Shown here: in pieces, positions 4,973-52,993 of the stretch
Layout: the number at the start of each line of letters is the position of its first letter
How positions within the stretch are numbered: position 1 is the first letter of the stretch
Assembly: GCA_964522435.1 (NCBI GenBank)
Contig: CAZFUL010000005.1
Span: 21,568-85,567 of the forward strand
Length of the DNA: 64,000 nt
Direction of reading: 5' to 3'
From: an uncultured Gammaproteobacteria bacterium
Lineage (GTDB): Bacteria; Patescibacteriota; Patescibacteriia; Magasanikbacterales; UBA922
Notes under the pieces: generated by a model
Database searches by the model: none
What the model was told of the DNA's origin: nothing
Seen by the model: the letters and a program-made list of their open reading frames with translations, nothing else
Position numbers and translations under genes: made by a program

Positions 4973-5010
4973 ATAAAAAAACACCCCGATGTAATCGGGG
5001 TGTTTTTTCA
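4973..5010 (+). terminator. intrinsic terminator, identical to the hairpin after the S1 gene
   Basis: aaaaaaacaccccgatgtaatcggggtgttttttc. Confidence 0.8.
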
Positions 5011-10077: not shown

Positions 10078-10344
10078 ACAACAAAAATTATGAATAAAGG
10101 TGGAGGATATAGAGCGATTATAGCAGGGAGGGTTTGTATAGGCAAGGAATCCTAAATCTAAAATCATAAATCAAAAGTCAACAATTGTAATATAGTTTTT
10201 ACTGGTTCAATAGACTATTTCATCTATATTACGATGGAGCCAAAGATTACTTAAGGTTTATTCTCCAATTTTGATTTATGACGTTAGATTTATAATTTTT
10301 TCTCTTATTTTAGCAAAATTTTGTTATTTATGAGGCTGATACAC

Positions 10345-10373
10345 TTGACAAAATTGTTTTTTTATGATATTAT
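10345..10373 (+). promoter_or_regulatory. sigma70-like promoter (TTGACA, 17 nt, TATTAT) pointing into the island
   Basis: cttgacaaaattgtttttttatgatattat read directly. The spacing is consensus. Confidence 0.5.
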
Positions 10374-10379
10374 CTCCCG

Positions 10380-10603
10380 TTCTGAAAATGAAAGCTACAG
10401 ATAGAACAACTGACAATTACATAACATATCACTCCGTTTGCCTATATCTCGTCTACCTACGCCCCTTGGGCTTCGGTAGACAAAGGCGGACAAAGGAAAG
10501 AGAGAGCCTTAACAGTGATAGTTCAAAGAAATCCAGCACCCACCTACGCTAAAGCTTCGGTGGGCAAGTCAACCACTCTCTCAAACAGAGTGGTTTTGTT
10601 TTG
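10380..10603 (+). ncRNA. candidate small structured RNA (~220 nt) between the promoter and an intrinsic terminator
   Basis: Two related hairpins, ccTACGC..CTTCGGTag and ccTACGC..CTTCGGTgg, then the terminator ccactctctcaaacagagtgg plus ttttgtttt. No ORF is present. Confidence 0.35.
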
Positions 10604-10827
10604 ACAAGCTAACGCATTAGAAACAACTATTGCAGTAGCTTCTCGAAATAAACTCGAGAATGGTAGCGGAGGTTGTAGGACCTATGAGTGAAAGCAATTT
10701 TGCTCGTTCTCCCTCGCGGCTGCTCTAGATATCTAGTACCGAGTGCGTCTTGCCATGTGGCGAAAGTCACGTGGACAGGACACTCTGTAGTAGTACAGAG
10801 ATAAGCGATCTTTATACATACTCTACC

Positions 10828-13918: not shown

Positions 13919-14857
13919 ATGAACAACTTCAAGACCTTGTCCTTCCTCCTGGGCCTCCAGCCCAGCGATCCGGCCTCCGTCATGGAGGTCGCCCCCACCC
14001 TCAACCTCGGGGCCGACGACAAGGTCGTGCCCCAGCTCGAGGCCGCCCTCCGGGCGGCCGGCCTCGAGGGCCTGGCCCTCGAGCGCATCGTGTTCCCCGG
14101 CAACGGGGCGGCGGCGATCGCCATGGTCGCCCTGTACGAGGGTGCGCAGGGGATGCAGCTGCCCACCCATGTGGTAGCGACGGCCCCCTTCAAGGGCAAC
14201 GCGGAGGTCGGTGAGTTCAACCTCGCCAACCTCCGTCACAACGAGGCCCGCAGCCTCCGGGACGAATTCGAGACCGACGAAGAGAATGCCACCGCCAACG
14301 GCGCGTGGCTCCTGCTCGACGGCTCGGGGCGCCCCGTGCCCAACCAGATCCTCCTGGATCTGATGCGGGAGACCGCCGGTGCCACCGACATCACGGTCGT
14401 GCCGTTGGGCATGCCCGCCCAGCGCAGCGTCACCGAGCCTTGGAAGGCCGCGGACGGTTCGACCACCACGGTCGACCGCCTGCGCGCCCTGCTCGCGGAC
14501 GGCGCCTTCACCCGCGCCGACCTGATGTCCGGGCGGGTGGCCTTCCTGCCCCCCGGGATGGGCACCGCGGCGCTCTGCGACGCGGCGATCATCTACGGCG
14601 TGGCCGAGTCCTGGCCCACCGTGGTACGGCAGGCTGGAACGGCGCCCTTCCCCTTCGCCGAGCTGGTGCGCGTGCACGAGCTGCGCCAGCTGGGCGCGCA
14701 GATCGCGGCCGAGCTGAAGACCGCCGAAGCCCCGGTGCTGGTGCCCCGTCACCTCCTGAACGAGGTGGTCGAGGCGCTGCAGACCCGCAACGAGGAGGGG
14801 GCGGACTACGGTGAGCTCCTCGACGAGCTCACCACCCTCCTCGCCCGCGGCCGCTAG
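13919..14857 (+). CDS. hypothetical protein (313 aa)
   Basis: A GGAGAG RBS precedes the ATG at 13919. High GC3 and no recognised domain. Confidence 0.55.
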   Translation: MNNFKTLSFLLGLQPSDPASVMEVAPTLNLGADDKVVPQLEAALRAAGLEGLALERIVFPGNGAAAIAMVALYEGAQGMQLPTHVVATAPFKGNAEVGEFNLANLRHNEARSLRDEFETDEENATANGAWLLLDGSGRPVPNQILLDLMRETAGATDITVVPLGMPAQRSVTEPWKAADGSTTTVDRLRALLADGAFTRADLMSGRVAFLPPGMGTAALCDAAIIYGVAESWPTVVRQAGTAPFPFAELVRVHELRQLGAQIAAELKTAEAPVLVPRHLLNEVVEALQTRNEEGADYGELLDELTTLLARGR

Positions 14858-15000
14858 CCCACATGGTTCCCCAACTGGAACCGCAGTAACGCCAAAATCC
14901 TTCGTGACATGAGTTGGCATGTTACAAGGTAGGATGGCTCTCCTGGAACTTCTCCAATGAGCCACGCAACGGAGAGCGGAAATCTCCATGCACTCGGGAC

Positions 15001-15067
15001 GGCTTGCAATGCACAACGCAAGCCATTCCCTTTATCGCTCTAAGAAATATCTTGGGTCGATAAAGGG
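15001..15067 (+). terminator. two consecutive perfect hairpins (ggcttgc..gcaagcc and ccctttatcg..cgataaaggg) at a GC transition
   Basis: Read directly. They sit where the high-GC DNA gives way to the AT-rich insert. Confidence 0.5.
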
Positions 15068-15122
15068 GATACAAAAAAACAATCCCTGTTGAGACTGTTC
15101 TTTAAAAAAATGTATTGAAACA

Positions 15123-15590
15123 TTAGACCCGCATGAGGTCGACTTTTTCTTCGACTCGCTGTTGACGTAAACTCACTGCGGCAAGGTCTGATTCTTGTTT
15201 TTGATAGAGGCCGATAAAGTCATCAACATGATTGTTGATTTCATGACGAAGGACAGCAATATCAGTTTTGAGTTCAGTTCTGACCAAAGTAATTTCTTGG
15301 TATAGCTCGGTTTTTGCTGATCGGATTTCTTTGTTCATATCCTTTCTTACCGATGTAATTTCTTGGCTGAGCTCCTTTTTTACCGATTGTATTTCTTGAT
15401 TGAGTTCTGTTCTTACTGATGTAATTTCTGTTTGTAATTCTTTTTGAAAGCGATTGATTTTTTTATCAAGTCTTTGTTCTACCTGAAAAAGATCGTCTTT
15501 GGTGGCAGCGTTATCTTTGAGAAAATCAATGGCTTCTCGATTTTCGTGAACGGCTTGGAGGATATCTCTGAGAGTTGGCTCGTGTTCCAT
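15123..15590 (-). CDS. coiled-coil hendecad-repeat protein, paralog of 9514..10077
   Basis: Repeats ELQTEITSVRT / ELNQEIQSVKK / ELSQEITSVRK, an ATKDD motif and an N-terminus MEHEPTLRDILQAV. It is low-GC and on the minus strand, embedded inside the high-GC island. Confidence 0.55.
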   Translation of the reverse strand: MEHEPTLRDILQAVHENREAIDFLKDNAATKDDLFQVEQRLDKKINRFQKELQTEITSVRTELNQEIQSVKKELSQEITSVRKDMNKEIRSAKTELYQEITLVRTELKTDIAVLRHEINNHVDDFIGLYQKQESDLAAVSLRQQRVEEKVDLMRV

Positions 15591-15954
15591 AGAAGAAGAC
15601 AGGTACCTAAATAATATATATACCATATCACAAACAAAAAAAAGAGACTATCAAAAAAATAAAAAAATTCGAAAATGCGCGATTGCTGATAGCTATTCAC
15701 GAGGAGTGGAATATTATCAGGAGTTGCGACAAGTATATACGGCAGTTCCTTACAAAAAAATATTTATGGTGAACAGCCTTCCACCACTCAATTAAGAGTA
15801 GAACAAGATAGATTACCCTATCTTGCTTTTTGCTTTTAGTTGAGTGGTGAAAGGGAAGAGAGACAAAAAAGCCGTCTCCCTCTAACACCATTAAACCGTC
15901 CCGCAAACTGGGGCGTCCGGCTGCTCGCCGGCTCTTTCAAAACGAGGAGGGGAA

Positions 15955-16509
15955 ATGAGCGCACATATGATGCGGTGGTTTGAGTTTTTGATGATCCCGC
16001 GCAACATGCTTGTGTTGGGATTGAGCGTCGGCCTCCTGGTCGCCATCATCGGCGGCTGGGACATTCTCGAGCCCACGAGCGGACTCGCCACCCTGGCCTT
16101 CGCTGCCGCCACCTGGTGGCAGACGAAGAAAAAGGCCAAGGCTCGCTACGCGAACATCGAGGGCGAGGATTTCATCATCGTTCTCGAGCTCAAAAGGACG
16201 GTGGTGGAGTCGATGACGAAGCAGTTTGGTCGGGCACCCGACCAGGTGCTCTTTGTCAAAAAATTGATCGGCACCATCGAGTTGACTACTGAAGAACACT
16301 GGGAAACACTCGTACGGGCTGTATGGGAGGTGATGTCCTCCCATCAGGATAAAAATATCTTATTTGCCAGTGACGTTCCCGGGCAACTCTGGGCATGTCT
16401 CGGACAGATGGCCGGGATGGACCGTCTCCGAGTCAAATGGCTCGGGTACTTCAATGGTCAAATCGATGAGAGCTGTCCTCGCCCCCGAGGTGATTGGATG
16501 TTGCCATGA
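15955..16509 (+). CDS. membrane-anchored hypothetical protein (N-terminal TM helices)
   Basis: GAGGAGG RBS and two predicted TM segments. It overlaps the next gene by 16 nt (ATGTTGCCATGA), suggesting translational coupling. Confidence 0.55.
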   Translation: MSAHMMRWFEFLMIPRNMLVLGLSVGLLVAIIGGWDILEPTSGLATLAFAAATWWQTKKKAKARYANIEGEDFIIVLELKRTVVESMTKQFGRAPDQVLFVKKLIGTIELTTEEHWETLVRAVWEVMSSHQDKNILFASDVPGQLWACLGQMAGMDRLRVKWLGYFNGQIDESCPRPRGDWMLP

Positions 16510-16976
16510 TTTGGTGCCTCCGCTCTGGCGAATCCGTGCGGGATCGGGATGATTCCCACCTGCACGGGGACGTCGTGAGGTACCTGCCCGAAGTGTTGGC
16601 TGCCACCAATTCGCGGGGGCAGGCAAGCATTGTTCGGGAGCACCGCTTTCCCAGGGTCGTTGGTGTGAAGAATGTGGTGCAGACCAACCAGTCTGACAGC
16701 ATTCTCTTCGCCCAACGGCCGGGGAGAGCGGGCTTATCGCGGTTCGTGTTGAACCGTCGCCCGGAACCCACCAATTGGGTTACGGTCATTCTGCGCCAGC
16801 AACCAACTGGCGAGTACATGATCGTATCTGCTTGGTGCGGACCGGCGACGACCCACGAACCGTGGGACAAGTACGCGACCCTGTCAGTCAGCCGCCGGTT
16901 CTGGAGCACCCACGCGATTGTGTGGGGCACCGAACCGGCGGACGAAGAAACCATAACCACAACCTGCCCCTGGTGA
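16494..16976 (+). CDS. hypothetical protein (160 aa)
   Basis: Coupled to the upstream gene and on the same strand as the MoxR/VWA pair. Confidence 0.45.
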   Translation: MDVAMIWCLRSGESVRDRDDSHLHGDVVRYLPEVLAATNSRGQASIVREHRFPRVVGVKNVVQTNQSDSILFAQRPGRAGLSRFVLNRRPEPTNWVTVILRQQPTGEYMIVSAWCGPATTHEPWDKYATLSVSRRFWSTHAIVWGTEPADEETITTTCPW

Positions 16977-17179
16977 ATGTGGGCAGAAAAAAGGAGGCAC
17001 TCGAGGCTCGTTATGATATGCACATTCATACGAGCCGGCTTCACGAGTAGTGATTGCAAATGCAATGACTACTGATGAAGCCGCAACAGTAGCAGACCTG
17101 CTGCTGTGTGGTGTGTTCTTGAAAATCGAAAACAGTTTTTTGACATCCTCGATTTGATCGGGGAGAGGAGGAAGAGGCC

Positions 17180-18448
17180 ATGAAGCCGGTAATCGCTACC
17201 ATTCTGACTGCGGCGCTTGCGCTGCGGACGAAGATTGTGGAAACTCAGCGCGCCCTTGCGGGGGCGCTGGTCGAGCGTGAGGACGAAGTCCTCGCCTGCC
17301 TGGTCGCCATGGTCTGCGATCAGGCGGTGTTCTTCTATGGCCCGCCCGGCGTGGCCAAGACCTTCGTGGCCGAGCTCTTGCTCAAGGCCATCGAAGGTGC
17401 CACGTACTACACTGCCCTCATGCCGGGCGTGGCCGACCCTGACGACCTGTTCGTCGAGGGGATCTCGGTGGTGAAAATCGATGAGGGTGGCGGCCATATC
17501 CGTACCATCATCGAAAAAACACCTGGCAGAGCGGCGCTCGTCAACGGTGTCCTGCTCGATGAGCTCTTCAAGGTGGACGATCCACGTGTCCTCCAGGCGC
17601 TCCTGGATTTGACCTTGTCGGACGGTGTGCGCCTGGAAGGCCGGCGTCTGGCCGACCAGGCGCACCTCGTGATGGGCATCTCGAACGAAACTCCCAATTC
17701 TGGGAGCGAGTTCGATGCCCTTTGGGCACGGTTCGTCCTGCGTTTGTCCGTCAAGCCCCTCGGGGCTGACGGGCGTAAGCGCATGATCCGTATCCAAGAG
17801 GCTGCGGCTCGTAATGGCGGAGCAGGAGTCGTCCGCCCAGCGAATCCACTCACGTTGCAGGACATCGCGACCCTGCAGCAGGCTGCGGCGCAGGTCGACA
17901 TCGGAGATGACATCCTCGACCTCATCGAGGAGACCATCGACGAACTGTTCAGCCAAGATGCGGATGCCTTCCGCTGGCTGAAGCAGGACGATCGCCGTCG
18001 TGGCCTGATGGTCAAGGCGTTGAAGGCGCACGCCTTGATCCACGGACGGACGGCCGTTTCCAAGGCCGACCTGGTCATTCTGAAATGGATGATGTGGAAT
18101 CATCCAGATCAAATCGAGCAGGTCGAGGAAAAGGTGAAGCCGCTTGCGGCGACACCTTTCTCCGAAGCCTTGGAGGAGATCGATGACCTCCTCGCCCCCA
18201 ACGGCAAGGTGTGGAGGGCGTTTGAGAAGCGGGAAATGACCTGCTTCACGGACGCCGCCGCTCAGATCAACCGTTTGAAGGACACCGTCCTTCCTCGGTT
18301 GATCAGCCAAGCCAGTGGGATTGAACTCAGCCGTCTGGAAGCCATGAAGAATGGTGTCCAACGGCTGTTCACGGGAGTGATGGCGCGCATCTCGGGCCAG
18401 GAGTCCGAGATGAGCTGGGACGCTTTCGTCCAGCTCCTCAAGAGCTGA
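17180..18448 (+). CDS. MoxR-family AAA+ ATPase
   Basis: Walker A GPPGVAKT, Walker B VLLDELF, a sensor-1 Asn region, an Arg-containing second region of homology (SRH) and a C-terminal helical lid. A GAGGAGG RBS is present. Confidence 0.8.
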   Translation: MKPVIATILTAALALRTKIVETQRALAGALVEREDEVLACLVAMVCDQAVFFYGPPGVAKTFVAELLLKAIEGATYYTALMPGVADPDDLFVEGISVVKIDEGGGHIRTIIEKTPGRAALVNGVLLDELFKVDDPRVLQALLDLTLSDGVRLEGRRLADQAHLVMGISNETPNSGSEFDALWARFVLRLSVKPLGADGRKRMIRIQEAAARNGGAGVVRPANPLTLQDIATLQQAAAQVDIGDDILDLIEETIDELFSQDADAFRWLKQDDRRRGLMVKALKAHALIHGRTAVSKADLVILKWMMWNHPDQIEQVEEKVKPLAATPFSEALEEIDDLLAPNGKVWRAFEKREMTCFTDAAAQINRLKDTVLPRLISQASGIELSRLEAMKNGVQRLFTGVMARISGQESEMSWDAFVQLLKS

Positions 18449-18458
18449 GGAGGGAGAC

Positions 18459-20192
18459 ATGTCTTCGTCCGAAAAAAGGCGAGGAGCCCCACCGCTCCGA
18501 AGGCAAGATCTCGAACCTGCTCTGGTCACTGATGCCGATTCCGTAACGGTACGGCGTTATTTGTCCAGGCGGTCTGAGACCCCTGCCATCTGGGGGCTCG
18601 AACAGAGCGCAAATATCTCGGGTGCTCCCGCTGCACTCGCAGATACCTTCAACGTCTTGCTGTCCTCAGCGGTCGGCGTCAAGCCAGAGGACAGTGTCAA
18701 ACCTGCGCAACGCTATTGGCGAGGGATCCTTGATCAATCAATGGAGACCTCGCCGTTCGAGGCGTTGCGTGGAAAAACCCGTGGCGATGAACTCTTGTCT
18801 ACGATTGGCACCTTGGAGGCGGCGAACACCGTCTTCGGTCTGGTGCCCAAACAGGACAAAGAGAAACTCGATAAGTTGGCCCAGGCGCAAGCCGAGGCTG
18901 ATGAATTCGAGGCTGATGCGCAAAAAGCAGAAATGGACGCGCAAGCGTTTCAAGATCTGCTCGCGCAGATGCAAGCCGCGGTACAAACCGAAGACGGGGC
19001 TGGTCAGGGAAGCGGACAACCGCAACCTGGTCAGCCTAGTGTTGGTCAAGCAGGAGGAAAAGCTTCGGGTAAGTCCTCCAGCGGATCGGCGCAGATGAGT
19101 GCTGAACAAGCACAACAAATCGCTGATCAATTGACCAAGGCGCAGAACAAAGCAGCAGAAGCCCGTGAATTGGCAGATGCTGCTCAAGAAGAGCTTCAGG
19201 CCAAAGCTGACGCATTGATGGGGAAACCCGGAACTGCAGAGGCAGAAGCCAAGCTCGACGAACTGCGTCGACTCGGTCGTGCGGCCATGCAACAGGCAAA
19301 CGAAACGGTCGGAGAAGTCCGAGATACCGTGGCGGCCTGGGGCGTGGAAGCTGGCGAGATTGCCAACCTGGATCCGACGGAAGCGATGGCGCTTCTCGAG
19401 CGCATGAAGAGCAATCAGCATTTCAAAAAATTTGCTGAGTTGCTTGGACGCTTGCGTCGGGCCGCGGAGAAAAAGGCTCGGATGGAAGAAAAGGGTAAAA
19501 GCACACGCGTGCCCCGAATCCATCTGGGTCGAGATATCGGCCGAGCACTGCTCAGTGAGGTCGCTGCCTTCGCGATGGGTGATATCCATGAGGATATGGT
19601 CACCGAGCGATGGGCACGCGGTACATTGCGACAGCGCGGAGCCGTGACCAAGCGCCAACAAAGCGCAAGCGAAGGCCCGATGGTGATCTGCGAAGATGCC
19701 TCGGGATCGATGGCTGGTGAGCCCTATCGCTGGGCAAAGGCCGTCACCTTGGCGCTGGCCACACTTGCTCGTGAAAAGAAGCGGGGCTACGGCTGGGTCA
19801 TGTTCGATGAACGCGTTCAGCGTTCGCGCGCATATCCTGCCGGAAAACTCGGAGCGCGTGACATCCTCGAAATTGCCGAAACGGCAGCAACCGGTGGTGG
19901 CACAAACTTTGAGGCACCGCTTCTCCAGGCAAAGAAAATGATCGACGAAGAAGGTCTTGAAAAAGCCGACATCGTTCTGATCACGGATGGGGACTGCGCG
20001 GTTTCGCAGCAGTTCCTCGAAAAATTCTTGGCCTGGAAGCAAGAACGGTCGGTGACAGTGATCTCCGTGGTTATCAATGTGGGAAGCTATGCTTGCTCCA
20101 CTGCCACGGTTGATAAATTCTCCGACCGCGTCGAGCGCGTCTCGAGCTTCACCGCGGAAGCGGCTGAAGCTCAGGTGTTCGCCCACCTCTGA
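18459..20192 (+). CDS. von Willebrand factor A (VWA/MIDAS) domain protein with a long N-terminal coiled-coil, Q/A/G-rich region
   Basis: C-terminal VWA with MIDAS DASGSM, GGGTNF and LITDGD motifs. It is the obligate partner type for MoxR ATPases, as in RavA-ViaA, CoxD-CoxE and NorQ-NorD. Confidence 0.8.
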   Translation: MSSSEKRRGAPPLRRQDLEPALVTDADSVTVRRYLSRRSETPAIWGLEQSANISGAPAALADTFNVLLSSAVGVKPEDSVKPAQRYWRGILDQSMETSPFEALRGKTRGDELLSTIGTLEAANTVFGLVPKQDKEKLDKLAQAQAEADEFEADAQKAEMDAQAFQDLLAQMQAAVQTEDGAGQGSGQPQPGQPSVGQAGGKASGKSSSGSAQMSAEQAQQIADQLTKAQNKAAEARELADAAQEELQAKADALMGKPGTAEAEAKLDELRRLGRAAMQQANETVGEVRDTVAAWGVEAGEIANLDPTEAMALLERMKSNQHFKKFAELLGRLRRAAEKKARMEEKGKSTRVPRIHLGRDIGRALLSEVAAFAMGDIHEDMVTERWARGTLRQRGAVTKRQQSASEGPMVICEDASGSMAGEPYRWAKAVTLALATLAREKKRGYGWVMFDERVQRSRAYPAGKLGARDILEIAETAATGGGTNFEAPLLQAKKMIDEEGLEKADIVLITDGDCAVSQQFLEKFLAWKQERSVTVISVVINVGSYACSTATVDKFSDRVERVSSFTAEAAEAQVFAHL

Positions 20193-20199
20193 AAACCAA

Positions 20200-20400
20200 A
20201 AACTCCCCCAGCATTGCTGACAACTGGGGGAGCCTGAAAAACAGTCAGTCAGTGTTTCTCGCCTGGCAATGAGAAAACACTGTCAAAAAGTTACGCCAAA
20301 GGAGATTCGTGGTGACTCCAAATAATTTCATCACACAACCGGTCGTTTGTTTTGCTGCACACACTGCAAACGACCCTTCAACTTTCTTTCTGATAGGAAT
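20200..20400 (+). repeat. structured intergenic element, copy 1 (three hairpins), paralogous to 23233..23428
   Basis: The 3' core of ~105 nt is ~96% identical between the copies. The upstream hairpins are diverged with compensatory changes. Confidence 0.6.
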
Positions 20401-20527
20401 GTCGGGGAGAAAGAGAAGAGATTCCTGGAATCGGACGCTGCAACCGATTCACACACAAAACCGTTCCAGTATGGAAAGCTCTATCCGTACTACGCAGAAG
20501 GAACAAGCCTCTTGAAAGGAGGAGAGC

Positions 20528-20839
20528 ATGCAGTGGACTATTGTATTTTTTTCATCGTGGGATCACCCCGTCGATGAACGCCCTGGCCTGGTGCCCGAAG
20601 GGTGTCTGGGTCTGTACCTCATTGATGTGAGGCACGATTCCGAAGAATTCTTGCTCGAGGGGTATCTTCCTATGGGGCAAGAAGTCGACGCACAGGTCTG
20701 CTTCGACTTGAAAAGTACGGAGCAGGTGTACCGAGGGGTGGGGGCAGAGTCTCCCATCGCGGAGTTCCGCAACGCCCAAGGTGAGGTGGTCGTCCGCCTC
20801 ATCTGGGATCAGGAGACGGGGGAGTACCGGCGGGAGTGA
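20528..20839 (+). CDS. hypothetical small protein (103 aa)
   Basis: GGAGGAG RBS, downstream of repeat copy 1. Confidence 0.45.
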   Translation: MQWTIVFFSSWDHPVDERPGLVPEGCLGLYLIDVRHDSEEFLLEGYLPMGQEVDAQVCFDLKSTEQVYRGVGAESPIAEFRNAQGEVVVRLIWDQETGEYRRE

Positions 20840-21117
20840 TCTCGCCGTAGCCATAGAAAAAGAAAGGGGGAACAGTGGTGATCTCGTGCCCTCCGAGATC
20901 GCCTTCCCAAACCACTTCCACAGACAGGTTCTGATAGATATGTACTCTCTCTCATATCTGTTACGAAATTATCTGTATGGGGAAGTGATTTGGGGAAACC
21001 CTAAAATTCGTTTTTCGCTCTAACAATCCTGTTGGCACGAAAAACATTGGTCTTTCAAATCAAAAATAAACCAGCCCCCCGACTTTAGGTCGGGGGGTGT
21101 AGACAAGGAGATTTGCG

Positions 21118-23223
21118 ATGTCGACCACCACCCCAGCTCCGGAAAAGATCATTTCCCTCATCACTTCTGAAGAGGGAAAAGATTTTAAGACAAATGGGGA
21201 AGTGGTGGGAAACTATCGCTACTCCATTGTTTTTTTCCCGCGCGGGGAAAAGTGTGAGCCGGGGAAAGAATACCGGCTTGAGCTGACTCCTTTACGGGGT
21301 CAAGACGGAAACCCTCGAACCGACAAGCGCGGAAAGGTGATGTACACATCACGCCCCGCTGCCGTGGAGATCACCGAGACCTGGGAATCCTTGCCCGACG
21401 GCAATATCCAGCAGCTGCAAGTCCGCACGGACTGGCGCTTGCAGGAAGTTGGTCGCCGGGTCATCGACGGCCCCCGCCCACCTGCGGCGCGCGAAGCTGC
21501 CGAGTTGTTCCCCACCACCCGAAAGGAGTTGGTGTTTGGCAGCTCGGTTGCCGACACGCACCTGGCAGAGGTTGTCGTGCACACCTTTCCCATCGAACAG
21601 GAAGAGGTGAAGGCCGGCAAAATCAGCTGGGTGCGCAGCGGGGAACGCCAGGTGGAGGACTCTCCCGTCCTCTACCTGGTGGACAGCCTTGTAGGCGTGC
21701 TGTATACCGGCACGCTCGACCTGGTGTACCCGCCGGAGCGTGACTGCTCCGTTGAGGTACGATTTACCGGAGGAAAATCCGGCACCCGCCTGTCGCTGCG
21801 CTGGGATGCTCTCCCGGCCTGGTTTCAGGCAGAGGTGCAGCGGCCGTATCCCGTCTGCCCCTGCGGCCGCAAGCGCGTGGGCTCCAACTCAGATGGCTAC
21901 GCCAAGTGCGAAAGCTGTCGGGACGAGGAAACCTGCGTGCGTTGCAACCAAGAGCGGCGCATCAACCTCATTGAGGGGCTCGCGATCTGCAAGGGTTGCG
22001 AGCCCATGGCTCGGCTTGAGGCGGAGGTACATATCCATGTGCCACAGTCCAAGCGAGCTGAGCTGGCTGCGCAAGCGGCTCGGCTCATGTCGGCGAATGC
22101 GCTTCCTGGTGATGTCGGCTACTCCCTGCTCAAAGAATTGTTGAGCGCTGAGGGGGTGGAAGGCGAAACCCAGGAAGTGTTGCTGCGGCGAGCAGATCAT
22201 GCCTGGCTCTACTTCTTCCCTACGGGAGAAGTATGGGCCAGCCACCTGCCTCTGGTGGCGCTGCAGATTTTGGCAACAGCGCTCGGCGCGGCGCAGGGCA
22301 ACGGCCTGGTCACCTTGGTGGCCTGGATGGTTAGCCCGACCTACTTTGTGGCCACGCAAGTGGAACACAAAGAGCTCTCCCTGTATTGGGAGACGCCGCT
22401 GCACAGCGTGCAGCTCGCCAAGCGGGTGCGCCAGGCGCATGCCGAGCGGCAACGCCGCCTCGATCAGATTGACGTGTTGATGGCAGGGCTCATGAACACT
22501 GATTTCAATGACGAGTGGCGGCTCAAACAGCTCCGCTCGGCGACGCTTCTTGATCAAGAGGATGGGGCTAGCGATAGCCAAATCCTCTTGGAAATAGAAA
22601 GCACGCAGGCGAAGCGGAAGGCGGAACGCGAGGAGCTCGTGGCAGTGAAAGCTGCGGCAAAGCCGATCGCGGAGAAGATCTTTGCTGAGGAGCATGATCT
22701 TCCCAAGGCCTGCCGCAAGGCCAACCGCGACAGCCAAGCCGAGGCGGTTGAGCACGCCTATGGCTGGATCACCAGCCGTCGTCGCTGGGAGCACGATGAG
22801 CCGGTCGTCCAGAATTGGCTGGACTGGGAAAATCTTGAGCGCCTCCGGGAGTTTGTACAAAAGTACTCCTGGGTGCTCGAGCCCATCCGTCCGCTCGTTG
22901 TGCCGCCTCGCCCTCGTTGGGGCGATCTCCCGAACCCGAGCGCCGTCCCGACCCCTGCTCGCCAGAGCAACGGTACTGTGGCCACCTTCACCGATACTGG
23001 TGATGGTCGACACTTCCGTTGTTCTGCTTGTAACGGTACCCATCGGGTAACAAAAGCAGAACAGCGCAGCTACAAAGATGGCGAAGAAATTCACCTGATC
23101 TGTGGCTGTAGTGCCGAAGGAAGGGTACGGCAGGTTGTTGCTCCCGTGTCTCCCAGCACCGCTGGTGCTGGAGACATGGCTGATCAACTGGCCGCTTTGC
23201 GCAGCAAGTGGGGTGGCTCCTAG
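21118..23223 (+). CDS. large hypothetical protein (701 aa) with multiple CxxC zinc-ribbon-like clusters
   Basis: Cys clusters CPCGRK..CESC..CVRC..CKGC mid-protein and CSACNG..CGC near the C-terminus. A GC hairpin and an AAGGAG RBS lie upstream. No known catalytic motif. Confidence 0.65.
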   Translation: MSTTTPAPEKIISLITSEEGKDFKTNGEVVGNYRYSIVFFPRGEKCEPGKEYRLELTPLRGQDGNPRTDKRGKVMYTSRPAAVEITETWESLPDGNIQQLQVRTDWRLQEVGRRVIDGPRPPAAREAAELFPTTRKELVFGSSVADTHLAEVVVHTFPIEQEEVKAGKISWVRSGERQVEDSPVLYLVDSLVGVLYTGTLDLVYPPERDCSVEVRFTGGKSGTRLSLRWDALPAWFQAEVQRPYPVCPCGRKRVGSNSDGYAKCESCRDEETCVRCNQERRINLIEGLAICKGCEPMARLEAEVHIHVPQSKRAELAAQAARLMSANALPGDVGYSLLKELLSAEGVEGETQEVLLRRADHAWLYFFPTGEVWASHLPLVALQILATALGAAQGNGLVTLVAWMVSPTYFVATQVEHKELSLYWETPLHSVQLAKRVRQAHAERQRRLDQIDVLMAGLMNTDFNDEWRLKQLRSATLLDQEDGASDSQILLEIESTQAKRKAEREELVAVKAAAKPIAEKIFAEEHDLPKACRKANRDSQAEAVEHAYGWITSRRRWEHDEPVVQNWLDWENLERLREFVQKYSWVLEPIRPLVVPPRPRWGDLPNPSAVPTPARQSNGTVATFTDTGDGRHFRCSACNGTHRVTKAEQRSYKDGEEIHLICGCSAEGRVRQVVAPVSPSTAGAGDMADQLAALRSKWGGS

Positions 23224-23232
23224 AACTAAACC

Positions 23233-23428
23233 TTTCCCGGTTGATGCTGGTATCCCGGGGGAGTCTGAAAAAATTTACCAGTGCGTGTCTCTTGCTTGGC
23301 AACAGGAAGACACGGAAAAAAAGAAACGCCAAGGGAGATTCGTGGTGACTCCAAATAATTTCATCACACAACCGGTCGTTTGTGTTGCTGCACACACTGC
23401 AAACGACCCTTCCACATTCTTTCTGTCA
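23233..23428 (+). repeat. structured intergenic element, copy 2
   Basis: See copy 1. It follows the 701-aa gene by ~10 nt and precedes the next gene. Confidence 0.6.
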
Positions 23429-23575
23429 CAACGCAGTTTGGTACGGAGAGAATGAGAAGTGTTTCCGCCCGAGAGAAGAACGGGCGGTGTGTGTGGTCTC
23501 GTCAGTGGGTTACTGATTGAGGCCTTTCCAACCCAGTCCCCGCTACCGTGGGAGAAAACGGAGAAGGAGAAGATC

Positions 23576-24109
23576 ATGGCTCGTCGTGATGAGCCCATGT
23601 CGCGTGAGAAGTGGCTCGCGCAGCGAAACAATGGACGAATCTTTGAGAGCTGGGAGGATTTCCTCTCGGCCATCAAAGAGGCACCCACGGTATCCATGGG
23701 GAACGAGCCGGAGGGGACCATTCGTTTCTCCTCGTGCTTCGTTCTCGCACACGGTCCGACCCGCTATGTGGTGTACACGCTCGGCACCCCAATCTTTGGG
23801 GTGAGCGTGGGGCAACAAGGCGTTTCTGAGCTCTCCTGGTTCCCTCTGGAGCCGGTCGAGTTCACGCCCGAAATGCTTCTCACCCTCGTTGGGGTGGGGT
23901 GTAAGTTCAACGACACTGGGAGCGAGATTCGCTCCCTCACGGGCTGGGAAGCCATGCTCCACCTGGAGCAGCGCTACAACTGGCTCGTGCAATCCGGCAA
24001 GGTGGATCCTCGCGGTGGTGGGCTGCTCTCACCGAGTTCGGCCTTCTTCCGTGAAGGCGAAGACATGGCCGATCTCGAACAGCAGATCGCTGCGCTCGAG
24101 ATCGCCTGA
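23576..24109 (+). CDS. hypothetical protein (178 aa from the RBS-supported start)
   Basis: GGAGAAGGAG RBS. The C-terminus GEDMADLEQQIAALEIA resembles the C-terminus of the 701-aa protein (GAGDMADQLAALRSKWGGS). Confidence 0.5.
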   Translation: MARRDEPMSREKWLAQRNNGRIFESWEDFLSAIKEAPTVSMGNEPEGTIRFSSCFVLAHGPTRYVVYTLGTPIFGVSVGQQGVSELSWFPLEPVEFTPEMLLTLVGVGCKFNDTGSEIRSLTGWEAMLHLEQRYNWLVQSGKVDPRGGGLLSPSSAFFREGEDMADLEQQIAALEIA

Positions 24110-24671
24110 AGCGTGTAACCAAAAACAAAGGAGAAAATAGCAAAAAATAAAAAAGCTGCGCCATAATTCAAAGGCGTAGAGGTGGGTGACCTCGCGGGAT
24201 TCCTAAAATTCCCAACAGAGCCAACCCCGACGAGGTCGGGGAGAATTGCGCCCATGCTATCACGGGCGCGGACTAGAGAGTCCGAAGTGCGCAAGCACAA
24301 GTCAAGCATCTGGAGCAGTTGCTCCTCGTGCGATAGTTGCTGAGCTTATCCTATTCCAATCGAGAATGCCCAAAACGGTCACGTATGTGACTTCTCGATA
24401 TACAAGCGCTTGTATAGGCTTGTCGGAGTACCCGGGGTAGGCCAGTACCAATTTAGGGTACTGTTCTTTTTCTCTTCCGCTTCACGCCAAGGGGGGTGGG
24501 CGGAGTGATGAACTGTTGCTACAAGCGACAATTCGTCCAATAACGACGGGAGTGTTTATTGCAAACACCCCCGGTTCGACTATCATTTTCTTTTTTATAA
24601 AAGGAAGTGATTGAGAATATATATAATCAATCAGCTGCCCCACCAGCGGATTTTTTATTTTCCAAAATTAC

Positions 24672-38929: not shown

Positions 38930-41900
38930 ATGAATCGTTTAACTTTTTTTTCTCGCCCTATGCCTATCTACAAGCGTCAACCTACGACACAAAAGGAGCG
39001 AAAGTTCTTTACCCAACGTGCGCAAACCGCACAGCTCCCTGACTTAATTGGGACACAAAAATCATCATACCAATGGTTTTTGAATCAAGGGATTAAGGAT
39101 TTGTTTGAAGAAATTTCTCCGATCACCGACTTTACCGGGCGAGATTTGGAGCTCTATTTAGAAGACTATAGTATTGATGAGCCAAAATTTGATGAGCGCA
39201 CCAGTCGTGAAAAAAATATTTCATTTGAGGCACCATTACGGGTAAAAGCACGATTGATTAACAAACGAACCAAAGAAGAACAACTCCAAGAAATTTATTT
39301 GGGCGACATGCCAGTCATGACCGATCGCGGAACGTTTGTGGTAAATGGTATTGAACGGGTTATTATTTCTCAGCTTATTCGTAGTCCTGGCGCGTACTTT
39401 ACGGCAGAAAATGTTCGTGGTCGTCGTTACTATGGGGCAAAAATTATCCCTAACCGTGGGGCGTGGATTGAAATTGAAACAGACCAAAATAATGTTTTGT
39501 GGATTAAAGTAGACAGAAAACGCAAAGTAGCGGCAACAGCACTGTTGCGTGCCTTTGGTCATGGAAACAATGACGTGATTCTTGACTTGTTTAAAGAGGT
39601 AAATAATCACCCAAATATTGATTTTATTGAAGCGACTTTGAAAAAAGATATTTCTACCACAGAAGATGAAGGGTTGATTGAAGTATATAAACGTATTCGT
39701 CCGGGTGACCTTGCTACTGCAGATAATGCCCGTGGGTTAATTCACTCCATGTTTTTTAACTTTGATCGCTACGATTTGAGTCGTGTTGGGGTGTACAAAT
39801 TAGATGCAAAATTTGATTTGCATTTAGCTGACACAGATTTTGATAGTAAAGAACACCGTGTTCTTTCTCCAGAAAAACTAATTGCCGTCTTAAAAGAAGT
39901 GGTGCGCTTAAACGTGACCCAAGAAGAACCAGATGATATTGATCATTTGGGAAATCGTCGTATTCGTGCGATTGGAGAATTGGTACAAGACCGATTCCGC
40001 ATTGGGTTAGCCCGCATGGAACGTATTATTAAAGACCGCATGAGCACCTATGAATTAGAAGGATTGGTGCCAAATAAATTGATTAATGCACGACCCGTTA
40101 TTGGTGCGGTGCGAGAATTTTTCATGAGTTCTCAGTTGTCACAATTCATGGATCAAATTAATCCGCTTGCAGAATTGGAACATAAACGTCGTGTGTCTGC
40201 GCTTGGGCCAGGGGGGTTATCTCGTGACCGCGCAGGATTCGAAGTTCGTGACGTACATACCACTCACTATGGTCGTATTTGTCCCATTGCTACTCCAGAA
40301 GGACCAAACATCGGGTTGGTTGGCCACATGGCAAGTTATTCAAAAATTAACAGTTTTGGCTTTTTAGAAACTCCCTACCGTAAAGTGATTCACCGTGTAC
40401 CAAATGAAGCGCGCTTTACCGAAGGCGAAATTGCAGGAGAAGATATTGCGGGAGTCGTAAAGATGGGAGAAGATATTACTGCAGCCGTTGCGAAAAAATT
40501 AGAAGCAAAAAAAGAGCTGACAGAAGTACGCGTAAAACCTCGTGTATCAGATGAAGTGTTGTATTTAAATGCAACGCAAGAAGAACGATCGATTACCGCA
40601 AGTGCAACCACACCAATCGATGCGCGCGGCTACTTTTTGGTAGACAGAACACCAGCACGTATTCATGGAAAACCAGCACCAGCGGACATTGTTGATATTC
40701 AATATATCGACGTTGCGTCAAATCAAATTTTAAGTATTGCAACCAGTTTAATTCCATTTTTGGAACACGACGATGCGACCCGTGCGTTGATGGGAACAAA
40801 CATGCAGCGCCAAGCGGTTCCTTGTATTAATCCAGATGCACCACTTGTTGGAACTGGGGTAGAAAAAGCAGCAGCAGCCTATAGTGGGCATGTATTTTTT
40901 GCAGAAGAAGATGCAGAAGTAACCTATGTTGATGGTGGTCGTATTGAATTAACCGGAAAAAAAGGAAAAGTATACACCTATCAATTAAATAAATTTATTC
41001 GATCAAATGCGTCTAGTTGTATTAACCAACGTCCTACGGTGAGCCTTGGTCAAAAAGTGAAAAAAGGTGAACCGTTGTGTGATGGACCAAGTATTCAACA
41101 TGGTGAGTTAGCGCTTGGACAAAATGTGTTGGTTGCCTACATGGTATGGGATGGATACAACTACGAAGATGCGATTATTTTATCAGAACGCATGGTGCAA
41201 CGAGATCGCTACACCTCTGTTCAGATTGAAAATTATGTTACCGATGTTCGCGAAACAAAACTTGGACCGGAAGTCGTAACGAGTGATATTCCAAATGTTG
41301 CGGAAGAAAAATTAAAAAATCTTGACTCTGAAGGAATTGTGCGTGTTGGAGCTGAAGTAAAATCTGGAGACATTTTGGTTGGAAAAATTACGCCAAAAGG
41401 AGAAACCGAATTAACTCCAGAAGAACGCTTATTGCGCGCGATCTTTGGAGAAAAAGCACGCGATGTCCGTGATTCTTCATTGTATTTAGAACATGGTGAA
41501 CATGGAAAAGTTATTGATGTAAAAGTATTCTCAGCAGACGAAGGTGATAAATTGCAACCTGGGGTAAACAAACAAGTACAAGTAACGGTTGCCGACATGC
41601 GTAAAATTCAAGTCGGAGATAAAATGGCAGGACGTCATGGAAACAAAGGGGTTATTTCTCGTGTTGTTCCGGTAGAAGACATGCCATTTTTAGATGATGG
41701 AACACCCGTGGATATTATTCTTTCTCCACTCGGGGTTATTTCTCGTATGAACTTGGGGCAATTGCTCGAAACCCATCTTGGGTTAGCAGCAAATGCGTTA
41801 GGATACCGTATCGCTACCCCCGTGTTAGATGGTATTACCGAAGAACAAATTAAAGGAGAATTAGCAGCAGCAGGATTTACGACTGATGGACAATTACAAT

Positions 41901-46312: not shown

Positions 46313-46325
46313 TCCAATAGTTGAA

Positions 46326-46358
46326 TTAAAAAATCCCGATTACATCGGGATTTTTTTA
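46326..46358 (+). terminator. intrinsic terminator after rpoC
   Basis: aatcccgattacatcgggatttttttat. Confidence 0.8.
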
Positions 46359-46428
46359 TAGTTGACAGAGCTTTCTTTTTTAGGATAGTCTATGAACGTT
46401 CTCATCACTGAAACAAAAGGAATACACC

Positions 46429-46848: not shown

Positions 46849-46920
46849 CCAAGAAAGGAGAAAAAATCCCTTTGCCTGTGTTGTTCCTTTAACACCAGCA
46901 AAGGGAATGACACACAATAT

Positions 46921-46950
46921 AAAAAACCCCGATTAGCTCGGGGTTTTTTT
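46921..46950 (+). terminator. intrinsic terminator
   Basis: aaaaaaccccgattagctcggggttttttt. Confidence 0.75.
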
Positions 46951-46974
46951 AGTATGGTTGAAAAAGCGTATTGA

Positions 46975-52837: not shown

Positions 52838-52993
52838 CAAAAAAATCCCGACTCAGTCGGGGTTTTTTAATTAATAATGAATAACTTAAAATAACCACGC
52901 CTTGCCCGTCCTTAAAAAGGAGGGGAGGATCGCCTATTGTATTGTTTCTGTTTGACAATATAGCATTTTTGTGCTAGTATAAGCGTATCTTTT

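Follow-up and report, generated by a model that had tools for sequence, protein, structure and literature searches.

Paralogous structured spacers as candidate cis-acting RNA elements in the MoxR-VWA gene cluster of a CPR bacterium

Introduction

Hairpins between genes serve as processing and stability elements in several systems, including the early RNase III sites of phage T7 and the hairpins and REPs of Rhodobacter puf and of E. coli pap and malEFG. Leaders of the ermC, cat, and trpL types act as leader-peptide attenuators or translational coupling leaders, whereas REP/BIME, pneumococcal BOX, and Neisseria Correia elements occur genome-wide in tens to hundreds of copies. The lambdoid nutL/nutR and HK022 putL/putR sites are present in few copies, which are identical in any one locus but differ from one locus to the next, and EAR sits inside its operon. 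The HK022 putRNA is the subject of PMC9378689 and STAB-SD stabilizers are that of PMC4113751 and PMC3997798; ribosome-at-Shine-Dalgarno stabilizers and RNase Y cleavage in structured 5′ UTRs count as established mechanisms (PMC5737220).

Here, we compare these systems with two copies of a structured spacer, each a chain of six hairpins (hp1 to hp6), in a window of 64,000 nt (the whole stretch of DNA analyzed). Like intercistronic processing elements, the spacers are hairpin-rich, lie between co-directional genes, recur at several operon junctions, place a hairpin without a U-tract just 3′ of a stop codon, and have single-stranded A/U-rich linkers between hairpins. Unlike these elements, they are much longer (170-340 nt with 5-8 hairpins), share a paralogous, near-invariant core that includes a Shine-Dalgarno-like box, and show no sequence relation to any described site; their cleavage is a prediction. 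With the ermC, cat, and trpL leaders they share a Shine-Dalgarno sequence, a start codon, and a short ORF running through alternative hairpins, and, as in coupling leaders, the ORF of copy 1 stops within the hairpin that sequesters the Shine-Dalgarno sequence of the next gene; in contrast to such leaders, peptide and ORF length are not conserved, the composition resembles that of non-coding DNA, and a third copy has no ribosome-binding site. Like REP/BIME, BOX, and Correia elements, they are repeated, hairpin-forming intergenic modules that are probably co-transcribed and may affect mRNA stability, but they are confined to one gene cluster, in two to three copies, and a homologue from another genome is syntenic with them. 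Small hairpins with specific loops and a proposed cis action on the nascent transcript recall the nut and put RNAs, and the intra-operon position recalls Bacillus EAR. As in lambda nutL/nutR and HK022 putL/putR (PMC9378689 for putRNA), the few copies are near-identical within a genome and divergent between relatives. Unlike nut, put, and EAR, the spacers have no boxA/boxB or put consensus, no recognized partner protein, and no Rfam match, both copies lie in one string of genes, and no U-tract terminators to be overcome were detected. Finally, in the B. subtilis hbs leader and in STAB-SD of cryIIIA (PMC4113751, PMC3997798, PMC5737220), a Shine-Dalgarno-like box likewise lies far upstream of the real start in a structured leader, which by analogy suggests a role in protecting the downstream message; here, in contrast, the box is followed by a hairpin-clamped GUG and an open frame.

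Results

The host contig belongs to Candidatus Magasanikbacteria, has a GC content of 41%, and carries a 13-kb island at 57% GC. The contig derives from a MAG and the island could conceivably be misassembled, yet both island junctions lie inside one contig. The MoxR-VWA gene cluster in this CPR (Candidate Phyla Radiation) bacterium is horizontally acquired, and UGA is an ordinary stop codon in this DNA. The cluster and its spacers are arranged as follows:

14886-15072, + strand: third, strongly diverged relative of the spacer, after a 334-aa ORF (covariance-model match)
17180-18448, + strand: MoxR-type AAA ATPase (Pfam, homologues, PHROG matches)
18459-20192, + strand: VWA protein, stop codon ending at 20192 (Pfam, homologues, PHROG matches)
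20193-20453, + strand: structured spacer, copy 1 (hp1-hp6), immediately behind the VWA stop codon
20528-20839, + strand: 103-aa ORF downstream of copy 1
20840-21117, + strand: second structured leader, ending where the 701-aa gene starts
21118-23223, + strand: 701-aa Cys-rich (zinc-ribbon-like) protein (homologue comparison)
23224-23495, + strand: structured spacer, copy 2 (hp1-hp6), immediately behind the stop codon of the 701-aa gene
23576-24109, + strand: 177-aa ORF downstream of copy 2, with an alternative GUG start at 23459

The ATPase and VWA genes (17180-20192) form a conserved pair upstream of copy 1, and in 54 of 57 related loci the gene directly behind VWA encodes a homologue of the 701-aa protein (~30% identity). 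The 103-aa ORF has a gene-like codon-position GC, and a search for its homologues found none. The leader at 20840-21117 is itself strongly folded (z = -6.4), and its hairpin at 21075-21097 stops ~10 nt short of the Shine-Dalgarno sequence; at its 3′ end it is similar to the leader of a further locus (L008), and 21011-21044 resembles 15031-15064.

An earlier sequence-only reading had placed two copies of the element after the VWA gene and after the 701-aa gene, and there they are. Apart from the diverged relative, the 64-kb window contains exactly two copies, 3033 bp apart and both intergenic within the co-directional string of genes. A repeat search found a direct repeat of 147 nt at 88% identity (20246-20392 versus 23279-23425), two core patterns of 35-40 nt each occurred twice apiece in the window (chance expectation 0), and the window's 50 kb of host DNA held no copy of the core. 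The homologous region spans ~260 nt rather than the ~200 nt first proposed, and the ~96% identity reported for the core holds over the stretch then quoted, falling to 94% (6 differences) over the full 103 nt (20290-20392 versus 23323-23425). By comparison, the copies are 67% identical in the hp1-hp2 flank and 51% in the hp5-hp6 segment (core versus flank, Fisher p = 1.7e-10). The core is sharply bounded, and its loops and linkers are conserved as much as its stems, which argues for sequence-specific recognition or gene conversion rather than structure alone; recent gene conversion instead of constraint could account for the high identity. The assembler breaks at the repeat. Segmental duplication of gene plus spacer was rejected because the adjoining coding sequences are not paralogous (103-aa versus 216-aa ORF, E = 2.5; VWA versus 701-aa protein, E about 1). 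A duplicated segment with coding function, which the sequence-only reading had named as a threat to its own claim, thus does not explain the copies, the coding reading of the core also being weak.

The three hairpins of the sequence-only reading were predicted independently in each copy, but they are part of a total of six; overlooked were hp3 (GUGGUGA..UCAUCAC), which clamps the start codon, the long hp5, and hp6. Also unnoticed was that the core opens with AAGGAG or AGGGAG-N7-GUG, a ribosome-binding site with a short ORF. The features within the two gaps are:

20203-20232, + strand: copy 1 hp1, CUCCCCCAG..CUGGGGGAG, 10 nt past the stop codon (fold)
20250-20282, + strand: copy 1 hp2, then the linker GUCAAAAAG (fold, pair count)
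20290-20392, + strand: copy 1 conserved core, 94% identical to 23323-23425
20299-20314, + strand: copy 1 Shine-Dalgarno-like AAGGAG and GUGGUG start codons (sequence)
20309-20334, + strand: copy 1 hp3, GUGGUGA-12 nt-UCAUCAC, predicted to sequester GUG (fold)
20309-20515, + strand: copy 1 short ORF, 68 aa, its UGA ending 12 nt before AUG 20528
20341-20375, + strand: copy 1 hp4, GGUCGUUUG..CAAACGACC, loop motif GCACA (fold)
20376-20418, + strand: copy 1 hp5, long stem abutting hp4 (fold, pair count)
20428-20450, + strand: copy 1 hp6 (fold)
20506-20530, + strand: final hairpin of the fold, in which CCUCUU pairs with AGGAGG, the Shine-Dalgarno sequence of the 103-aa ORF
23232-23263, + strand: copy 2 hp1, CUUUCCCGG..CCGGGGGAG (fold, pair count)
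23284-23314, + strand: copy 2 hp2, then GGAAAAAAAG (fold, pair count)
23323-23425, + strand: copy 2 conserved core, with AGGGAG and GUGGUG (23333-23347)
23342-23367, + strand: copy 2 hp3, within the core
23342-23455, + strand: copy 2 short ORF, 37 aa
23374-23408, + strand: copy 2 hp4, within the core
23409-23459, + strand: copy 2 hp5 (fold, pair count)
23465-23487, + strand: copy 2 hp6 (fold)

In copy 1, hp1 is followed by an A-rich linker without a U-tract, the hp4 stem is a perfect 9-bp inverted repeat, hp5 is rich in pyrimidines in its 5′ arm and in purines in its 3′ arm, and the last hairpin (20506-20530) encloses the UGA of the short ORF (20513-20515).

The chain of six hairpins is maintained by compensatory and G.U-preserving changes and is specific to the sense strand. 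The T-to-C and A-to-G pair change described for hp2 is real, hp1 likewise has an A-U to G-C exchange, and hp5 differs between copies by U-A to A-U and A-U to U-A. Using the structure derived from copy 1 (68 pairs), we found 7 of 68 pairs altered on both sides yet still paired, in helices 1, 2, 5, and 6; slid controls gave 0-2 such pairs and 2 of 500 shuffles reached seven, in a low-powered comparison of two sequences, one of which supplied the test structure. Helices 3 and 4 are identical in both copies and therefore give no evidence on pairing either way within the window. Two G.U pairs in hp1 of copy 2 would be mismatches if read from the opposite strand. Compared to shuffles, the sense (+) strand folds at z = -5.1 in the gap of copy 1 (20193-20527) and at -3.6 in that of copy 2 (23224-23575), against -1.9 and -1.6, respectively, for the antisense strand.

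Among ~170 loci, nhmmer and a covariance model gave a single cross-species homologue (L009), from another CPR genome; the covariance-model search proposed in the sequence-only reading thus yielded L009, the diverged third copy, and nothing else. The homologue lies at the same junction, in the gap between VWA and the next gene, and keeps the hairpin order: in hp3 (stem GUAGUGA..UCACUGC) all 7 of 7 pairs are kept (one double change, two wobble changes, none broken), hp5 is kept through several double changes, and hp4 is swapped for a hairpin of different sequence in the same place. The third copy is a weak covariance-model match (23.4 bits, E = 0.002) with a fold z of -6.4. It contains a AACGCCAAAA box, a clamp similar to hp3 (14904-14925), a hairpin similar to hp4 whose loop carries GCACA (15001-15024), and, abutting this, a long stem similar to hp5 (15025-15070), in the same hairpin order as copies 1 and 2 and with further compensatory changes. 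The GCACA loop motif of hp4 is common to copy 1, L009, and the third copy. Structural support for hp3 and hp4 comes from L009 and from this weakly matching third copy.

In many related genomes, the MoxR-VWA cluster is likewise marked by structured spacers that evolve fast. Across 32 related CPR loci, with ORFs called crudely and 'in cluster' defined by position, the median fold z of gaps was -5.08 in the cluster versus -2.39 outside (p = 6e-7), and in-cluster gaps folded with an advantage of 7.6 kcal/mol for the sense over the antisense strand (p = 2e-6), whereas gaps outside showed no asymmetry. Structured gaps occur at most cluster junctions, and strong hairpins follow nearly every cluster gene. 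Many related loci bear locus-specific paralogous repeats with near-invariant cores, at equivalent junctions and on the sense strand, and cross-species leaders of one group (L092) show 8 compensatory pairs. Together, the compensatory pairs, the covarying homologues (L009 and the third copy), the strand-biased folding, and the 32-locus class uphold the earlier claim of selection on RNA structure, here on the sense strand, over neutral duplication.

We also compared the copies with known element classes. An Rfam search, suggested in the sequence-only reading, returned 0 matches in the whole window at gathering thresholds (Rfam 15, with families including riboswitches, leaders, sRNAs, OLE/GOLLD/ROOL, and EAR), and a permissive scan of 14800-24300 gave 4 sub-threshold matches, none on the elements. 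A + strand scan for intrinsic (Rho-independent) terminators flagged none at either copy, hp1 and hp2 preceding A-rich tracts; host terminators in the window do possess T-runs. Integron attC sites were rejected on the multi-hairpin architecture, the lack of readable core sites, and the synteny of the flanking genes in 54 of 57 loci, and no integrase domain was found among the scanned island ORFs. A diversity-generating retroelement TR/VR pair was rejected on the intergenic position of the copies and the types of difference between them (A/G, T/G, A/C, T/A), and no RT domain was found among the same ORFs. A CRISPR or short-repeat array was rejected on the number and spacing of the copies. The element is a new, unclassified RNA element, and its DNA is non-coding and confined to gene junctions.

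Discussion

Our preferred reading, to which we give a probability of about 0.5, is that the copies are paralogous cis-acting RNA spacers, or intercistronic 5′ leaders, in a + strand cluster mRNA, which would place the two downstream units under shared post-transcriptional control. Several other readings have to be weighed against it. Translation of the short ORF, rather than its peptide, might melt hp4-hp6 and the hairpin sequestering the next Shine-Dalgarno sequence, and thereby couple or attenuate the next gene. Both copies do have a ribosome-binding site (AAGGAG or AGGGAG, 7 nt before GUG), a start codon, and an ORF, and L009 retains GAGGA-N6-GUG; in addition, the ORF of copy 1 stops 12 nt before AUG 20528, inside the hairpin that pairs the Shine-Dalgarno sequence of the next gene, each short ORF lies in the frame of the ORF that follows it, and 2 of 3 differences in the 28 shared codons are synonymous. 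However, this 2:1 ratio is not significant (p about 0.16), the in-frame arrangement has a chance of ~1/9 given that UGA is a normal stop here, the ORF of copy 2 ends 120 nt short of a strong SD-AUG, and the start codon is buried in hp3 in the predicted fold. Nor did the leader-peptide comparison find a conserved peptide or ORF or a coding-type composition: ORF lengths are discordant (68, 37, and 17 aa), codon-position GC is flat, unlike that of every real island gene, no credible homologue of the peptide exists among 1.84 billion representatives, the 17-aa peptide of L009 is unrelated after ~8 residues while the hairpins persist, and the third copy has no Shine-Dalgarno sequence. We therefore consider a translated leader unlikely. 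Slightly more doubtful is a processive antitermination site of the nut, put, or EAR type, in which the core, alone or with a locus-encoded protein, would let the polymerase pass the hairpins of the cluster. Few copies per locus that are identical within and diverged between loci, as in the lambdoid and HK022 sites, an intra-operon position like that of EAR, the strong hairpins behind nearly every cluster gene, and the conserved GCACA loop motif would all fit. Against this, no boxA/boxB or put-like consensus was identified in the sequence, the Rfam models gave no match, no N-, Q-, or LoaP-like protein was recognized in the island, and a single site upstream should be enough for the co-directional gene string that holds both copies; moreover, the intergenic hairpins have no U-tracts, so that termination by them is in doubt.

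Two further readings we regard as very improbable. In one, the core is a promoter or operator for an island-specific sigma factor or regulator, each copy starting its own unit, and the hairpins are incidental. The sharply bounded, 94% identical core with its equally conserved loops and linkers, the perfect inverted repeat of hp4, and a hairpin before each core that could end the upstream unit speak for it. Yet neither copy has a sigma-70 promoter site (-35/-10 with 16-18 nt spacing), the best scores equaling shuffle means (z about 0, versus 3.9 for the host gap 10168-10400), and no DNA-binding regulator was recognized in the island. The G.U pairs and the more stable sense folding, in the window and across the class, favor RNA, the compensatory changes preserve pairing rather than a fixed half-site sequence, and hp4 of L009 differs in sequence in the same place. 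In the other, a functionless or selfish repeat (a recent duplication, a gene-conversion tract, or a REP-, BOX-, Correia-, or MITE-like element) landed in two already structured gaps. Sharp core boundaries against much older flanks, the assembly break, and locus-specific repeats in many related loci are in line with this, but the flanks are homologous too and retain pairing by compensatory change, another genome carries a homologue at the same junction, and the relatives' repeats lie at equivalent junctions on the sense strand. In addition, all copies (2 plus 1 diverged within 64 kb) are in the island and none in the window's 50 kb of host DNA, and neither terminal inverted repeats nor target-site duplications were seen in the sequence at the copies.

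On the preferred reading, the mRNA would span the MoxR-VWA-(103 aa)-(701 aa)-(177 aa) cluster. The sequence-only reading had assigned the copies to two separate transcription units. No sigma-70 promoter or hairpin-plus-U terminator is detectable at either copy, which fits co-transcription, and one operon is at least as likely as separate units; we infer transcription, processing sites, and the 5′ and 3′ ends of the element. We propose that hp1 (~10 nt behind the stop codon) and hp2, each followed by an A-rich single-stranded linker, create a site for endonuclease entry or processing. After a cut at this site, the upstream message would end in a 3′ hairpin and the downstream message begin with a 5′ hairpin, so that each cistron would have its own stability. 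The near-invariant core would combine the Shine-Dalgarno-like box with hp3 as start-codon clamp, hp4 and its GCACA loop, and an anti-SD/SD-like hp5, and might be read by a common factor, either a ribosome docking at the box, as a STAB-SD-type stabilizer or ribosome-loading site, or a locus-encoded RNA-binding protein. Such common reading would place both downstream units under shared control, and one shared recognized sequence, or gene conversion, would account for identity within a locus together with rapid turnover between genomes.

A bolder possibility, which we hold to be rather improbable, is that the spacers are the RNA half of a ribonucleoprotein system, in which hp3 and hp4 with its GCACA loop dock a protein of the MoxR-VWA-zinc-ribbon cluster or yield stable small RNAs working with it. 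RNA and protein would then co-evolve locus by locus, which would explain the identity within loci, the fast turnover between genomes, and the sense-strand structured RNA at nearly all gene junctions in the cluster. If true, a conflict-type MoxR-VWA system would have an operon architecture of a new kind.

Two copies of a structured spacer in the MoxR-VWA cluster

The element lies at gene junctions of the cluster:

14886-15072, + strand, third, strongly diverged copy of the element, after a 334-aa ORF
17180-18448, + strand, MoxR gene
18459-20192, + strand, VWA gene
20193-20453, + strand, copy 1 of the element
20528-20839, + strand, 103-aa ORF
21118-23223, + strand, 701-aa ORF
23224-23495, + strand, copy 2 of the element
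23576-24109, + strand, 177-aa ORF

A repeat search within 20200-23428 paired 20246-20392 with 23279-23425 as a direct repeat (147 nt, 88% identity), and the whole-window repeat search returned no further copy. Two long patterns from the core are each present at exactly two places in the 64-kb window and never in shuffles. Copy 1 begins directly behind the VWA stop codon and copy 2 directly behind that of the 701-aa ORF, as the sequence-only reading had placed them. The alignment of the copies, counted by segment, is a mosaic of identity levels in which the core is more conserved than its flanks (Fisher p = 1.7e-10). The repeat is real; the core identity of about 96% given at first holds for the stretch quoted then, against 94% over the 103-nt core.

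Identity between copies 1 and 2, by segment of the alignment
hp1-hp2 flank: 67%
Core, 103 nt, 20290-20392 / 23323-23425, + strand: 94%
hp5-hp6 region: 51%
Remainder to the next start codon: ~41%

Segmental duplication was rejected, as the neighbouring genes are unrelated. An independent Logan assembly of the same sample (locus L001, SRR12762285 contig, 1858-1995) stops inside the core of copy 1, and so the repeat breaks short-read assembly here, a practical point for any short-read assembly of this locus.

Sense-strand folding and compensatory pairs

When folded independently, both copies give the same hairpins in the same order (hp1, hp2, hp3, hp4, hp5, and hp6), with hp1 about 10 nt past the stop codon and a long hp5 abutting hp4. 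The three hairpins reported from the sequence alone correspond to hp1, hp2, and hp4 and appear in both folds, and the compensatory base changes cited as examples are correct. For the pair test, the centroid structure of copy 1 was projected onto the two-copy alignment before pairs were counted. Seven of 68 pairs, in helices 1, 2, 5, and 6, had changed on both sides yet still paired; this number was matched by 2 of 500 shuffles, and sliding the structures by 1-3 columns left 0-2 such pairs. Within the window, hp3 and hp4 are uninformative because they are invariant between the copies. Against dinucleotide shuffles, the complete gaps fold with z = -5.1 (copy 1) and -3.6 (copy 2) on the + strand and with z = -1.9 and -1.6 as reverse complements; separate folding-tool runs on the + strand gave z = -4.3 and -2.5. 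Read on the opposite strand, hp1 of copy 2, hp3, and hp5 would have A.C mismatches in place of their G.U pairs.

A-rich linkers follow hp1 and hp2 (GAAAAA and CAAAAAG in copy 1, GAAAAAA and GGAAAAAAAG in copy 2), and in the fold of copy 1 the AGGAGG of the 103-aa gene is base-paired to CCUCUU in the last hairpin. In the long hp5-type hairpin, seen in both copies and in the gaps of four related loci (L009, L010, L013, and L020), the 5' arm is rich in pyrimidines and looks like the 16S 3' end (CUUUCU/CCUCC). The 3' arm is rich in purines and resembles a Shine-Dalgarno sequence, although it is not the one that serves the downstream gene.

Homologues of the element

Reading the long VWA-to-next-gene gaps of related loci yielded one clear relative, in L009, the only foreign homologue found. 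This gap carries CGCCACGAGGAUUCGUAGUGACCUCAAAACAAAAUUUCACUGCA where the window has CGCCAAAGGAGAUUCGUGGUGACUCCAAAUAAUUUCAUCACACA, followed by a hairpin that takes the place of hp4 but differs from it in sequence, and by a long hp5-like stem. With RNAalifold on copies 1 and 2 and L009, all 7 pairs of hp3 are kept, with one G-C to A-U double change and two wobble changes, and hp5 shows several double changes. A second covariance model was given up, as the helix registers in its MAFFT alignment are off by 1-2 columns. The first covariance model, built from these three sequences, recovered its seeds and a weak third copy in the island (14956-15096, 23.4 bits, E = 0.002), in which inspection by eye and folding identify a AACGCCAAAA box, an hp3-like clamp, an hp4-like hairpin with GCACA again in its loop, and an abutting long stem. 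The few existing homologues do covary, whereas the sequence-only reading had named homologues without covariation as what would speak against it.

Other searches gave no additional member. The covariance model matched none of the other loci and nothing on the four closest Logan contigs, blastn against 165 loci returned the same-sample Logan contig alone, and nhmmer recovered only the seeds. No Rfam family matched the element, whether gathering thresholds or permissive settings were used. Viral contigs contained no match to the exact core pattern, the 10 viral matches to a degenerate core pattern were dismissed as chance since none fits the covariance model, and blastn against a phage collection found nothing. 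Identity as a DGR, CRISPR, or attC element was also rejected.

Structured spacers across related loci

The gaps of related loci have no sequence homology, yet they share the same anatomy: a GC-rich hairpin without a U-tract after the stop codon, then several strong hairpins, and finally a small GC hairpin that stops 2-10 nt short of the Shine-Dalgarno sequence. In many loci, gene junctions hold paralogous repeats peculiar to that locus, as in L003/L004 (104 nt, 99%), L089 (125 nt, 98%), and L097, whose layout of VWA gene, repeat, 647-aa gene, and repeat is that of the window. L011 has five copies with a two-hairpin core, and because this core is invariant the family holds no covariation information. 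Across species, a leader subfamily (L092, L113, L097, and L099) shares a long stem with 8 compensatory pairs.

From 32 non-redundant related loci we took the co-directional gaps of 100-350 nt and set those inside the cluster against those outside. With crude ORF calling and with 'inside the cluster' defined by distance from VWA, the gaps inside (n = 59) had a median z of -5.08, with 80% below -3, and those outside (n = 40) a median of -2.39, with 38% below -3 (Mann-Whitney p = 6e-7). For the inside gaps, the sense strand was more stable than the antisense by a mean of 7.6 kcal/mol (Wilcoxon p = 2e-6); outside, there was no strand asymmetry (p = 0.27). Structured gaps lie ahead of MoxR, behind both VWA and the zinc-ribbon gene, and also further downstream.

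The gene cluster and its host

Host RpoB (38930-42400) shares 82-84% identity with proteins labelled Candidatus Magasanikbacteria. The cluster sits on an island of about 13 kb (~10.99-24.2 kb) with 55-59% GC in a 41% GC contig, which points to acquisition of the MoxR-VWA cluster by horizontal transfer, probably from a high-GC lineage of the Candidate Phyla Radiation (CPR). An imperfect direct repeat lies near both island borders (10637-10662 / 24343-24368, 73%), and no tRNA gene or integrase was seen. The island codes for a MoxR-type AAA ATPase and a VWA protein whose homologues, 40-54% identical, come almost all from CPR/Patescibacteria MAGs.

For the Cys-rich 701-aa protein, a word-indexed search of 5.8 billion proteins returned only the self-match and a first locus scan found nothing; in 54 of 57 close CPR loci, however, tblastn placed a homologue (~30% identity) as the next gene behind VWA. 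We therefore rejected an orphan cassette between recombination repeats: this is a core gene, and its product is a conserved zinc-ribbon partner of MoxR-VWA that is as yet uncharacterised. Related loci also have in common a 160-aa protein encoded upstream of MoxR, and the conserved core thus comprises the 160-aa protein, MoxR, VWA, and the zinc-ribbon protein. VWA and its partner gene are separated by either 8-27 nt or 120-300 nt, a bimodal distribution.

The 160-aa/MoxR/VWA triad matches only unnamed PHROG families and phage tblastn reached only remote jumbo phages, so a prophage was rejected; PADLOC gave nothing relevant for a defence system, PDB sequence searches were uninformative as to whether the neighbours are Ro60-like (TROVE+VWA) or otherwise RNA-binding, and no description of this cluster or its spacers was found in the literature. 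Upstream of MoxR, L002-L005 encode a ~410-aa protein with Cas_csx3 Pfam matches (faint in L003-L005) and L168 a weak HD-domain protein, and a 184-aa ORF in the window (15955-16509) has a weak SAVED-like PADLOC match; these hint at possible nucleotide- or RNA-related functions in the cluster. A low-GC insert (15100-15850) separates the third copy from the next + strand gene. Its minus strand encodes a coiled-coil ORF (15123-15626) in which 33-nt units repeat in tandem-like fashion (15268-15429).

The left border of the island holds a candidate small RNA gene (10345-10605, + strand; no Rfam match). Behind a strong sigma-70 promoter (TTGACA-17-TATTAT) come ~230 nt of structured, non-coding sequence (z = -3.3), which end in a hairpin-plus-T-run terminator. 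The loop CGCUAAAGCUUC of its hairpin CCCACC-UACGCUAAAGCUUC-GGUGGG is found again in leader hairpins of Uhrbacteria (L003:6715) and Harrisonbacteria (L017:1924) loci.

Weighing the explanations

The element is a non-coding, sense-strand, multi-hairpin RNA at gene junctions, maintained by compensatory change, with a near-invariant core common to paralogues, and it belongs to a cluster-wide class. The earlier proposal of selection on RNA structure is supported by double-sided pairs, sense-strand folding, and covarying homologues; we consider the structural claim reasonably supported, and the function is inferred. The explanation we favour, at a probability of about 0.5, is a family of cis-acting RNA spacers that combine processing or end protection with a core read by a common factor.

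A translated leader ORF starting in the core is unlikely. The core opens with AAGGAG/AGGGAG-N7-GUG, giving ORFs of 68 and 37 aa with 27 of 28 N-terminal residues in common, and a Shine-Dalgarno-like box at the right distance from an hp3-clamped GUG persists across species. However, the frame in L009 yields an unrelated 17-aa peptide though the hairpins persist, the third copy has no Shine-Dalgarno sequence, and the codon-position GC of the short ORFs is flat (0.43/0.49/0.45 and 0.53/0.45/0.39), whereas real island genes, the 103-aa and 177-aa ORFs included, all show ~0.65/0.42/0.70. HMMER against 1.84 billion representatives found nothing credible. UGA recoding (code 25/4), considered for short ORFs in frame with the next genes, was rejected because the TGA that closes VWA coincides with the ends of its homologues and TGA stops regularly elsewhere; the genetic code is standard in host and island alike. 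The idea that the copies are ends of a duplicated coding segment finds no support in the neighbouring genes, which are unrelated, and the coding reading of the core is weak. Since the box and the clamped GUG are kept across species, ribosome docking or a non-conserved leader ORF at the core is possible.

Lambdoid nut and put sites are alike within one genome and diverged between genomes, as is the element. An antitermination signal of the nut, put, or EAR kind (put antitermination RNA is treated in PMC9378689) is nonetheless quite unlikely in our estimate. A scan for hairpin-plus-U terminators on the + strand at the element found none. Five bidirectional terminator-like hairpins in the host part of the window (AAAAAACACCCCGAU..AUCGGGGUGUUUUUU; 1682-1718, 4973-5009, 46323-46359, 46916-46952, and 52835-52871) contrast with the island hairpins, which have no U-tracts. 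A promoter or operator acting at the DNA level is very improbable: a scan for sigma-70-type promoters found none in the copies, with best scores equal to those of shuffles, against z = 3.9 in a host gap. We give a similarly slim chance to a functionless or selfish repeat.

Under the favoured reading of a cis-acting spacer, the cluster would be transcribed as one or a few long mRNAs, and hp1 and hp2 with their A-rich single-stranded linkers would be sites of processing and end protection, giving each cistron a separate stability. A common factor may read the core, either the ribosome at the Shine-Dalgarno-like box or an RNA-binding protein encoded at the locus, and the last hairpin of copy 1 is a plausible extra translational switch. 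Precedents for a ribosome acting at such a box are STAB-SD and the hbs leader, in which RNase J1 is blocked by ribosomes at initiation and the structured 5' UTR is a target of RNase Y (PMC5737220, PMC4113751, PMC3997798).

Implications for CPR bacteria

Cis-acting structured intercistronic or leader RNAs are an established kind; the element matches no described family. Its setting is unusual: a CPR-wide, apparently horizontally mobile MoxR-VWA-zinc-ribbon cluster, present across many CPR lineages, in which the spacers between genes are long, fast-evolving, and structured on the sense strand, and are often near-identical paralogues within one locus. To our knowledge, almost nothing is known of post-transcriptional control in CPR bacteria. 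If confirmed, these spacers would constitute an undescribed family of cis-acting structured RNAs in this radiation, and the cluster-wide pattern offers a concrete, testable handle on the expression of the MoxR-VWA-zinc-ribbon cluster.
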